DNA from: a virus
Lineage: Duplodnaviria > Heunggongvirae > Uroviricota > Caudoviricetes
DNA: 4,190 bases
Virus record (IMG/VR): IMGVR_UViG_3300018486_000204
Reading direction: 5' to 3' (one strand)
In this document: piece by piece, positions 1,167-3,752 of the stretch
How the letters are laid out: every line of letters begins with the position of its first letter
Numbering within the stretch: position 1 is the stretch's first letter
Made by a program: the position numbers and the translations under genes
The notes under the pieces: model-generated
Database searches by the model: none
Seen by the model: the letters and a program-made list of their open reading frames with translations, nothing else
What the model was told of the DNA's origin: nothing

Positions 1167-1178
1167 CACGCTACCGCC
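1167..1178 (-). promoter_or_regulatory. ops element (operon polarity suppressor), recruitment site for the antiterminator RfaH
   Basis: Minus strand reads 5'-GGCGGTAGCGTG-3' (plus strand cacgctaccgcc), an exact match to the canonical 12-nt ops sequence, in the untranslated leader about 75 nt upstream of the rmlB start. Confidence 0.9.
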
Positions 1179-1205
1179 CCTGGCTTTACAGCTACCAGAG
1201 CACTG
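1167..1205 (-). promoter_or_regulatory. JUMPstart 39-bp conserved element upstream of a polysaccharide gene cluster (contains ops at its 3' end)
   Basis: Minus strand 5'-CAGTGCTCTGGTAGCTGTAAAGCCAGGGGCGGTAGCGTG-3' matches the JUMPstart consensus found upstream of rfb, cps and kps clusters, as I recall it. Position between galF and the first O-antigen gene is the expected one. Confidence 0.88.
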
Positions 1206-2357: not shown

Positions 2358-2497
2358 TATTTTCCTACCTCTAAGTGGCTGATAGTGCGTAAATTATTGC
2401 CATAGGTTAGCCAAGCGTTATGGCTATATAGCAAAGCTTAGTGCCGCATAACTTTGATTAAACCTTACGATAACACTACACACCATCAGCATCTGGG

Positions 2498-2558
2498 TTA
2501 CTCGGATTACTCGGAAATCCACATACTGATAATTTAATCAGTACCTCTTTCCGAATAA
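2498..2558. repeat. Composite repeat block in the gne-galF spacer: 9-bp tandem direct repeat, 7-bp perfect inverted repeat, and an inverted 8/9 copy of the 9-mer
   Basis: Read directly from the sequence: ttactcgga at 2498..2506 and again at 2507..2515; palindrome TACTGAT-aattta-ATCAGTA at 2524..2543; tccgaataa at 2550..2558, whose reverse complement ttattcgga matches the 9-mer at 8 of 9 positions. Spacers of 8 and 6 bp give a near-symmetric layout. Confidence 0.6.
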
Positions 2559-2599
2559 TCGTAGCCCAACCTGGCCCTTTTTTCTCTGACTCGTCTGCA

Positions 2600-3595
2600 T
2601 TACTCAGAAACAAACGTTATGTCGTCTTTTTTGGCATGAACGAATTCATACTGCAGAGTTCGATCCAGACCTTGCGACAGCGTATACGGTGCCACAAAAC
2701 CTGAAGAATGCACTTTCGTTGCGTCAAACTGTGTTGTTGCGCAGAATTTTTTCACGCGCACAGAGCTGACAGCGTATTTTTTGCCCGTAATTTTGCTCAG
2801 GATATCAAAGCAATATCCACCCAGCATTCCTAGTGGATAAGGCAAGTGCATAGAAGGGATCTTTTTGTTCAGACTTTGTTCAACTTCAGCAACCAACTGG
2901 TTCATGTTCAGGTCTGGCTTATCAACGTAGTTATAAACCTCGTAACCTGCGGCAACATTCTTCAGTTTGTACTTGATAAACTCAACAATGTTTCCAACAT
3001 AAGCCATGGACTTATAGTTAGTCCCTGCGCCCACCATCATAAACTTGCCGCCAGCGATCTGTTTCAGCAAGTTATAGACGTTACCGCGGTTGCGTTCACC
3101 GAAGATAACGGTAGGACGGATGATGGTTAATGAACGTTCTGTTGGTGCTTTGTTATACCATTCACGCAGCACTTCCTCTGCCTGCCACTTACTTTTGCCG
3201 TAGTGGTTGAAAGGATCGTGTGGATGGTTTTCGTCAGGGTTGTGTTTGTTCAAACCATAAACAGCAACGGAACTGGTAAAGATGATATTTTTAACGCCAT
3301 TTTTTTCCATGGCCGCCAGCACATTGCGGGTACCCTGAACGTTGACATCATAATAGAGAGAAGTAGGGCTGACGTCATCGCGGTGTTCCGCTGCCAGTAG
3401 TACAACAGTGTCAAAACCGGCTAACGCCTGGTCGAGTGCCTGTTGATCACGAACATCGCCAATCTGTGTGATTTCTGGATAAAAGTGGCTCTGCTGTTTG
3501 TCCAGGTTCTTGATATTAAAGTCAGCAATTGCCGTTTCAAGTAGTCGGGTTCCTACGAATCCGGAAGCTCCTATGAGCAAAACGTTATCGTTCAT
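2600..3595 (-). CDS. gne: Gne, NAD-dependent UDP-N-acetylglucosamine 4-epimerase (GalE-like extended SDR)
   Basis: 331-aa ORF with N-terminal Rossmann motif GASGFVG (plus 3551..3571) and catalytic Y-x-x-x-K (YGKSK). Matches my recollection of the Gne protein (Z3206 in E. coli O157) found between wcaM and galF in serogroups whose O-antigen contains GalNAc. ATG start at 3593..3595, TAA stop at 2600..2602. Confidence 0.88.
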   Translation of the reverse strand: MNDNVLLIGASGFVGTRLLETAIADFNIKNLDKQQSHFYPEITQIGDVRDQQALDQALAGFDTVVLLAAEHRDDVSPTSLYYDVNVQGTRNVLAAMEKNGVKNIIFTSSVAVYGLNKHNPDENHPHDPFNHYGKSKWQAEEVLREWYNKAPTERSLTIIRPTVIFGERNRGNVYNLLKQIAGGKFMMVGAGTNYKSMAYVGNIVEFIKYKLKNVAAGYEVYNYVDKPDLNMNQLVAEVEQSLNKKIPSMHLPYPLGMLGGYCFDILSKITGKKYAVSSVRVKKFCATTQFDATKVHSSGFVAPYTLSQGLDRTLQYEFVHAKKDDITFVSE

Positions 3596-3752
3596 AAATC
3601 ACTTTAGTCTGGTTGTTACATAAGAAACACAAGATAAAGATGAGTACCTTCCCTGAGTAGTCAATGCTGCCCAGCCCCAGCTTTAACAGTTAGTGTGAGG
3701 ATTATAATCTTTTAGAACATTATATCCAGTAAGTTTATGAATGGTCGCAAAT

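Follow-up and report, generated by a model that had tools for sequence, protein, structure and literature searches.

The 4,190-nt stretch of DNA analysed here (IMG/VR virus record IMGVR_UViG_3300018486_000204, hereafter the window) carries a block of symmetric repeats at positions 2498-2558, within the spacer between the minus-strand genes gne and galF. Comparison of this spacer among Enterobacteriaceae suggested that the block is most likely the Escherichia form of a conserved hairpin in the gene-strand RNA, which we named P1. We give a probability of about one half to the reading that P1 acts in cis as an RNA hairpin and forms the first module of a structured gne-galF intercistronic leader. 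P1 belongs to no Rfam 15 family and is not described in the literature that we searched, in agreement with the initial annotation of the window, which knew of no feature that explained the block. A scan of the whole window against Rfam 15 (E <= 1) returned only the JUMPstart RNA and a spurious microRNA match, with nothing in 2358-2599. RefSeq records show the spacer without any annotated feature, and searches of the literature on the spacer, a galF stem-loop, Z3206, and the galF untranslated region (UTR) or Hfq found nothing on P1.

All of the repeats described in the initial annotation were recovered. On the plus strand, two tandem copies of the 9-mer TTACTCGGA lie at 2498-2506 and 2507-2515, and an inverted near-copy with one mismatch lies at 2550-2558. 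With up to one mismatch allowed, the 9-mer has five matches in the window against 0.67 expected, a number reached by none of 200 shuffles. Between the 9-mers, a perfect 7-bp inverted repeat (2524-2530 and 2537-2543) encloses a spacer of 6 nt and gains an eighth pair, G.U, when folded as RNA. The outer 9-mers had been proposed to pair around this inner palindrome; they do so within arms longer than first described, which span 13 nt each (2505-2517 and 2548-2560) and are 92% complementary. The energy of the fold, named in the initial annotation as a check, was far better than that of shuffled controls on both strands. The region 2480-2570 folded at -33.9 kcal/mol on the minus strand (z = -5.3) and at -29.9 kcal/mol on the plus strand (z = -6.5), and none of 200 shuffles was as good in either case.

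In the minimum free energy (MFE) fold of the gene strand, the Escherichia version of P1 extends over 2493-2569 (minus strand), with a middle stem of 13 bp between a basal extension of 5+3 bp and an apical stem of 8 bp; the repeat block makes up its upper two thirds. The 5' arm of the middle stem (GAUUAUUCGGAAA, 2548-2560, minus strand) contains a UCGGAA core that is invariant in 24 of 24 sequences and flanked by covarying pairs, and the 3' arm (UUUCCGAGUAAUC, 2505-2517, minus strand) contains the invariant UUCCGA core. The tandem 9-mers, read in the sense direction as two copies of UCCGAGUAA (2498-2515, minus strand), form the 3' strand of the middle and basal stems, and the inverted near-copy is part of the 5' arm. 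The apical stem-loop that holds the 7-bp palindrome (2523-2544, minus strand) is confined to Escherichia, Shigella, and E. albertii. Between the gne stop codon and the block lie 41 nt, and between the block and the galF ATG 140 nt; the distances given earlier (about 55 bp and 165 to 200 bp) hold for the inner palindrome and not for the block. We also noted a third near-copy of the 9-mer, the sense-strand sequence TCTGAGTAA at 2600-2608, which comprises the last gne codons with the stop codon and is identical to the basal 3' strand in the consensus of the P1 family (UCUGAGUAA).

With the Gne protein as query, about 35 Enterobacteriaceae species were found to have galF after gne, at a distance of 190-250 bp. 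P1 was present in the spacer of at least 24 of them, representing about ten genera (Escherichia/Shigella, Citrobacter, Enterobacter, Lelliottia, Kluyvera, Pseudescherichia, Trabulsiella, Pseudocitrobacter, and Cedecea), with a shorter version in two Siccibacter species. It was missing from the spacers of Buttiauxella and Dryocola and of one of two Cedecea species. The gene-strand consensus reads CUGCGA-N4-UCGGAAA, 30-32 variable nucleotides, and UUUCCGA-N4-UCUGRG, with a conserved 2x2 internal loop. The arms were the best-conserved part of a spacer whose mean column identity was only 47%, and TTCCGA of the 3' arm, invariant in 26 of 26 sequences, was its most conserved piece.

Conservation of the repeats, also proposed earlier as a check, therefore held for the arms across about ten genera, whereas the inner palindrome and the exact 9-mer duplication were confined to the Escherichia/Shigella lineage (with the palindrome also in E. 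albertii). What appears as tandem 9-mers in Escherichia corresponds to the family-wide UCCGA-N4-UCUGRG, seen as TCCGAGTTA TCTGAGTTA in Citrobacter and as TCCGAATCC TCTGAGTCA in Kluyvera. In genera other than Escherichia/Shigella, the apical 30-32 nt varied in sequence and often formed no stem (mean z = -0.78). Escherichia has altered P1 by a longer base and a perfect apical stem. Among nine Escherichia variants, the apical stem and the 5' arm of a long-range helix described below were invariant, and the base and one internal loop varied. One Escherichia strain carries the E. albertii-type allele with a 51-nt central deletion. E. coli strain N9 has a copy of IS3 inserted in P1 that replaces the 5' arm and gne, a natural loss-of-hairpin allele. 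A small open reading frame at 2476-2613 (45 amino acids, TTG start) was rejected as an explanation because the apical region varies between genera both in sequence and by 1-2 nt in length.

A covariance model (R1) built from 24 species matched the window at 2497-2568 with 68 bits. It also found P1 in Siccibacter, which was absent from the training set and in which the pairing is kept with an apex of 19-20 nt and a bulge. In UBA5654, the pairing likewise survives an apical insert of 58 nt and the replacement of a C by U, which leaves a U.G pair. The sense strand folded better than the antisense strand in most genera, and in 20 of 25 species the sense duplex surpassed the antisense one.

Base pairing was tested on an alignment of 24 sequences and 72 columns, with the structure ...(((..((.((((((((((( on the 5' side, 28 dots, and ))))))))))).))..)))... 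on the 3' side. The shuffled controls ignore phylogeny and can overstate covariation; measured against them, 88.0% of P1 cells were paired (82.2 ± 1.2% shuffled), 25 cells were changed on both sides (14.1 ± 2.8 shuffled), and the covariation score was 0.193 (0.111 shuffled), with none of 500 shuffles reaching the observed value in any of the three measures. When the register was slid by one to three columns, paired cells fell to 23-62%. Three informative pairs flank the invariant core (columns 13-60, 14-59, and 22-51 of alignment A2). The first alternates between A-U and U-A, the second occurs as G-C, U.G, G.U, U-A, and A-U, and the third as C-G, G.U, U-A, U.G, and G-C. The 2x2 internal loop, with R-C opposite U-G, was never paired.

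The pairing also carried a strand-specific signature. In register, G.U outnumbered A.C by 36 to 9 in P1, by 58 to 14 in the long-range helix, and by 21 to 4 in a hairpin at the galF Shine-Dalgarno sequence (both described below), and the corresponding ratios in slid registers were about 1.2:1, 2.3:1, and 0.6:1. This excess fits selection on the gene-strand RNA and is not predicted by a DNA site, a cruciform, or an antisense RNA. The spacer thus has two properties of a cis-acting structured RNA, compensatory changes across species and tolerance of G.U with avoidance of A.C. The two-tier stem-loop of the initial annotation is supported for its outer tier, which is conserved, shows compensatory changes, and has the G.U bias; the inner tier is specific to the Escherichia/Shigella lineage.

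Several observations, in addition to the phylogeny-blind controls, weigh against the reading of P1 as a cis-acting RNA hairpin. Eight of the 16 P1 pairs never vary, and the invariant UCGGAA/UUCCGA and GA/UC cores are uninformative on pairing and suggest sequence-specific recognition. The apex is tight in length and free in sequence and structure, which is unusual for an RNA loop and commoner in phased DNA sites. In L011, a Kluyvera genome, the 3' arm persists with no recognisable 5' arm, and Cronobacter, which is without gne, has a collapsed TGCGA-AGAT-TCCGA-CTCC-TCTG that forms no hairpin. Transcription through P1 is, moreover, assumed.

Templated correction of imperfect palindromes can mimic covariation. 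P1 might accordingly be a neutral quasi-palindrome left over from the gne block, in which template-switch (hairpin-templated) mutation, and not selection, maintains the symmetry. The function of P1 is a putative one, and its loss is tolerated in nature, as seen from the IS3 insertion in the 5' arm of strain N9 and from the collapsed Cronobacter version. However, we regard this explanation as unlikely because the arms are invariant across about ten genera in a spacer of 47% column identity. In addition, templated correction is not expected to favour G.U over A.C, and the internal loop is conserved yet asymmetric.

The invariant cores and the tightly kept 30-32 bp spacing are also what a DNA operator would show, and we treat this as the main rival and a serious alternative, although on the whole an improbable one. 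The arms would then be two RcsB-box-like dyads controlling galF transcription. Each reads TnCGA-N4-TCnGA over 14 bp, a dyad with an AT-rich middle and of the GA-N4-TC type to which RcsB/RcsAB-like (LuxR/FixJ-type) regulators bind, and the dyad centres lie 46-48 bp apart, about 125-170 bp upstream of the galF proximal promoter. The 14-bp consensus of Wehland and Bernhard (2000) is reportedly TaAGaatatTCctA, with conserved T1, A3, G4, T10, C11, and A14. The left dyad (TACGATTATTCGGA) agrees at 10 of 14 positions with the consensus TAAGAATATTCCTA, a score equal to that of the best-matching site upstream of E. coli wza, itself conserved across four genera, and it agrees at 11 of 14 with TAAGATTATTCTCA, the RcsAB box of the Klebsiella promoter galF P1 (PMC3438125). 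The Klebsiella box is at a comparable distance from galF, about 111-124 bp upstream of the mapped transcription start. In Salmonella, a chromatin immunoprecipitation (ChIP) peak of RtsB and a regulated long 5' UTR have been found upstream of galF (PMC5013294). The persistence of the 3' arm without the 5' arm in L011 would also fit an operator.

Other features of the dyads do not fit. Nearly all 24 sequences have C at position 3 of both dyads, whereas RcsAB boxes have A or G there, and the TAAGA half that is conserved in the wza boxes of four genera is absent. By sequence, the dyads do not qualify as RcsAB/RcsB boxes (10/14 for the left and 9/14 for the right), the box being given elsewhere as TAAGAAT-ATTCTTA (PMC7298118). 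An operator does not predict the compensatory changes, the G.U bias, or two inverted dyads that are able to pair as RNA, and UBA5654 and Siccibacter alter both the spacing and the dyad sequence yet keep the pairing. The motif occurs at no second locus, either in 336 kb of loci searched with R1 or among the metagenome matches listed (see below). Finally, the region upstream of Klebsiella galF is not homologous to the spacer: the RcsAB box is present there (L070, 2316-2329) and the P1 hairpin is not, so that homology of the block to the Klebsiella galF promoter was rejected.

A second DNA-level explanation concerns only the Escherichia-specific inner palindrome. The 20-mer TACTGATTAAATTATCAGTA at 2524-2543 (strand unassigned) resembles a LexA (SOS) box, TACTG-N10-CAGTA, fitting CTG-N10-CAG with TA flanks and an AT-rich centre. 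In a matrix rebuilt from 28 E. coli SOS boxes and not taken from a curated file, its heterology index was 8.8, within the range of those boxes (1.2-9.5) and at its weak end; the next-best site in the window scored 15.8. A random 7+6+7 palindrome scores as well with P = 5e-4. The pattern has no other match in the window, with 14 of 200 shuffles giving a match at up to one mismatch. The 20-mer was invariant in the nine Escherichia variants, but by our own estimate such invariance over 20 nt is expected in about 12% of cases (about 10% variable columns, alignment A3). In sequence the palindrome fits a LexA box, but it overlaps no promoter-like site (scan of 2300-2700) and is absent from all the other P1 genera. 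Since the apical stem of the RNA explains the palindrome equally well, and the likeness was noticed after the fact among many possible motifs, we consider a LexA box highly doubtful.

Still less probable was a role in intrinsic (Rho-independent) termination, whether of the gne transcript (minus strand) or of an antisense RNA (plus strand). P1 is a strong hairpin just past a stop codon, the plus strand of E. coli has a T6 run at 2577-2582 downstream of the hairpin, and one study reported antisense transcription across galF in K-12 (PMC7373196). However, a scan found no terminator-like site in 2300-2700, and no genus has a gene-strand U-tract after P1. The plus-strand T-run is Escherichia-specific and lies about 8 nt from the hairpin base (2569), and a weak 3-bp stem beside it was left unscored.

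P1 is specific to one locus. A 91-nt query occurred at a median of one place per genome, and at most at two, in 1314 of 5426 complete E. coli genomes, which were identical to the genomes matching the whole spacer, and in every record examined P1 lay between gne and galF. In the 336 kb of loci, R1 had no match outside the gne-galF spacer at E <= 0.5, including K-12, Klebsiella, and other spacer types, and none in the gne-less spacers of K-12, L197, Cronobacter, Atlantibacter, and Scandinavium. A metagenome scan with a two-arm pattern returned at least 120 loci. Among the matches listed, nine were genuine, all of them between gne and galF (E. coli-like, Citrobacter-like, and Enterobacter-like), and the remainder was without other conserved features. 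A dispersed repeat of the REP/BIME, ERIC/IRU, BoxC, or miniature inverted-repeat transposable element (MITE) type was ruled out because P1 occurs as one copy per genome at one locus. These distributions are best read as vertical inheritance, together with the gne-galF pair, of a cis element that many Enterobacteriaceae carry at this one locus.

Three partial likenesses elsewhere were inspected. An integron attC site was considered by eye, since GTTGGGC fits the core site GTTRRRY, and was rejected because the order of core and inverse core is wrong. The K-12 wza leader contains a mini-hairpin (UAUUCGGAAGUUAAUUUCCGUAAUAACCC, L205, 4017-4045, minus strand), about 75 nt upstream of ops, whose core is the same as that of P1; since the corresponding leaders of Salmonella, Enterobacter, and Kluyvera do not conserve it, it was rejected as a relative and is probably a coincidence. 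The motif T(G/A)CGA-N4-TC, which starts the 5' arm of P1, was seen by eye after the wcaM stop codon in this window (3739-3749, minus strand) and in the five gne-less spacers. It may mark a gne deletion or insertion junction, or a wider element. In K-12 and L197, a hairpin with a different core (UCCUGG/CCAGGA and UUCCUGG/UUAGGAA) follows the wcaM stop, and the other three gne-less spacers have no hairpin there; we therefore make no claim of P1 in these spacers.

Downstream of P1, the spacer RNA is predicted to form two further helices. The 5' arm of the long-range helix (GCUGAUGGUGUGUA, 2477-2490, minus strand) is directly 3' of P1, and its 3' arm (UACGCACUAUCAGC, 2378-2391, minus strand) is just 5' of the galF Shine-Dalgarno sequence, overlapping the position of a conserved -10-like hexamer in the galF -10/discriminator region. 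The two 14-nt arms are complementary when two G.U pairs are counted, with a duplex energy of -25.8 kcal/mol (z = -4.9). Six of ten long-range pairs change on both sides across genera, and the pairing is made by other sequences in Pseudocitrobacter (UGAUGAAGUGUAG and CUAUACUUCAUCA) and through a G-C to C-G swap in UBA5654. The second helix is a hairpin that would sequester the Shine-Dalgarno sequence just upstream of the galF ATG (UCAGCC-N7-GGUAGG, 2364-2382, minus strand). It belongs to the RNAalifold consensus and reads UCAACC-N7-GGUGGA in an alignment of 26 spacer sequences, with 95% of cells paired and C-G alternating with U-A and U.G.

Taken together in the 26-sequence alignment, the three helices had 89.1% of cells paired (84.6 ± 0.7% shuffled) and 34 double-change cells (16.4 ± 3.5 shuffled), values that none of 500 shuffles reached, and nine pairs were changed on both sides. 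The MFE folds of the whole spacers of E. coli, Kluyvera, and C. sedlakii shared a common layout. In the central spacer domain of this fold we also noted a hairpin formed by a 10-nt inverted repeat (2395-2404 and 2419-2428, TATTGCCATA and TATGGCTATA). The long-range helix was strong (z -2.0 to -5.4) in Escherichia, Citrobacter, Kluyvera, Trabulsiella, Pseudocitrobacter, Cedecea, and UBA5654. However, its duplex was unsupported in Enterobacter, Lelliottia, Pseudescherichia, and Siccibacter (z about 0). The role of P1 therefore cannot depend on the long-range helix everywhere, and P1 is the more general element. A pseudoknot between the apical region and the downstream leader gave no general signal (mean z = -0.5), such pairing being limited to Escherichia and two Kluyvera sequences.

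A promoter-like pair, CTGGCT-17-TATACT, which lies about 32 nt before the galF ATG in most genera, falls at the 3' arm of the long-range helix. The pair is GCTATAAT in K-12 and TTGGCT-17-TACGCA in the window (2409-2414 and 2386-2391, minus strand); a sigma-70 promoter scan of 2300-2700 returned no promoter-like site. These sequences suggest that galF probably has its own proximal promoter, in which case the leader structures would matter for longer transcripts arriving from upstream. Because gne-type Escherichia spacers have TACGCA or TATGCA at the -10 position, the promoter may be weakened in them. In Salmonella, galF has long and multiple 5' UTRs (PMC5013294), and in Klebsiella a galF transcription start has been mapped at -61 (PMC3569464). 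The transcription-start supplements for EDL933 do not mention galF, Z3205, or Z3206.

The block may act as a regulatory site for galF, a role that is inferred. In gne read-through transcripts, P1 could serve as a stable boundary hairpin that blocks 3' nucleases or directs processing of the gne message, and that insulates the folding of the leader downstream. The structure of that leader might then govern GalF output from read-through RNA relative to RNA from the proximal promoter of galF. Intercistronic stabiliser and processing hairpins include the REP hairpins of malEFG and the stem-loops of pap and puf. P1 resembles these in being a stable hairpin right after the upstream stop codon, without a U-tract, between co-oriented genes that may need uncoupled expression. 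Unlike them, it occurs once per genome at one locus, and has a stem that is invariant across genera and an apex constrained in length. The spacer also recalls leaders that occlude the Shine-Dalgarno sequence (translational operators, RNA thermometers, and riboswitch platforms), as it has a covarying Shine-Dalgarno hairpin and, in part of the P1 family, a long-range helix that closes the central domain. In contrast to such leaders, the conserved nucleotides of P1 lie in helices and not in junctions, and P1 matches no Rfam family. We know of no ligand or protein for the gne-galF leader.

A further variant, to which we attach only a small probability, is that P1 and the following helices are an undescribed RNA element, responsive to a protein or to the polymerase, in enterobacterial surface-polysaccharide loci. 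Its recognition surface would then be made up of the invariant double-stranded core and the length-constrained apex. The element could be the binding site of a specific RNA-binding regulator, or a put- or EAR-like element that modifies elongating RNA polymerase where transcription passes from the colanic-acid genes and gne to galF and the O-antigen cluster. JUMPstart/ops (RF01707) and the EAR RNA of Bacillales eps operons are likewise cis elements in polysaccharide clusters, and both act on elongating transcription. However, P1 is without an ops sequence and resembles neither model, and an antitermination role for it is speculation. An ops/RfaH site in the conserved GTGTAGT after P1 was rejected by eye, with 7 of 12 ops positions matching and the C3-G8 pair missing.

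On the minus strand, the window reads wcaM (3' part, stop codon 3753-3755), gne (2600-3595, stop codon 2600-2602), the 242-bp spacer (2358-2599), galF (1464-2357, ATG 2355-2357), JUMPstart, and rmlB, with every gene on that strand. The canonical JUMPstart RNA with ops (1167-1205, minus strand; Rfam RF01707, 60 bits, E = 1.7e-12) sits between galF and rmlB, heading the O-antigen genes, 1.3 kb downstream of P1. The RefSeq product of gne is N-acetyl-alpha-D-glucosaminyl-diphospho-ditrans,octacis-undecaprenol 4-epimerase (GlcNAc-PP-undecaprenol 4-epimerase). Relatives of Gne with 74-77% amino-acid identity were seen in metagenome-assembled genomes of Bacteroidales, Prolixibacteraceae, and Marinilabiliales, an unusually high identity across phyla that suggests horizontal transfer of this epimerase. 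A 4.26-Mb genome labelled Salmonella Choleraesuis has yegH, an epimerase gene, and galF with a 129-bp spacer (L069, 2372-2500) without P1; either the label or the arrangement looks atypical. The K-12 genome is without the whole block: the window from about 3739 to 2374 (13 nt past the wcaM stop codon to 17 nt before the galF ATG), comprising gne with both flanking spacers, differs from K-12 by an indel or replacement. Only the 1314 of 5426 complete E. coli genomes noted above have the gne-type version.

galF is placed at the junction of the colanic-acid genes and the O-antigen cluster, and in Klebsiella it heads the capsule locus under several regulators. P1 would be a defined and testable element of about 70 nt at this junction, and O157, O55, and many more GalNAc-containing serogroups are among the strains that carry it. 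Since it is situated in the recombination-prone flank of the O-antigen cluster, and is present or absent according to the gne indel, it may differ functionally between K-12 and pathogenic lineages. If P1 acts as proposed here, it would add a post-transcriptional layer to the control of UDP-sugar supply for the surface polysaccharides of these bacteria.

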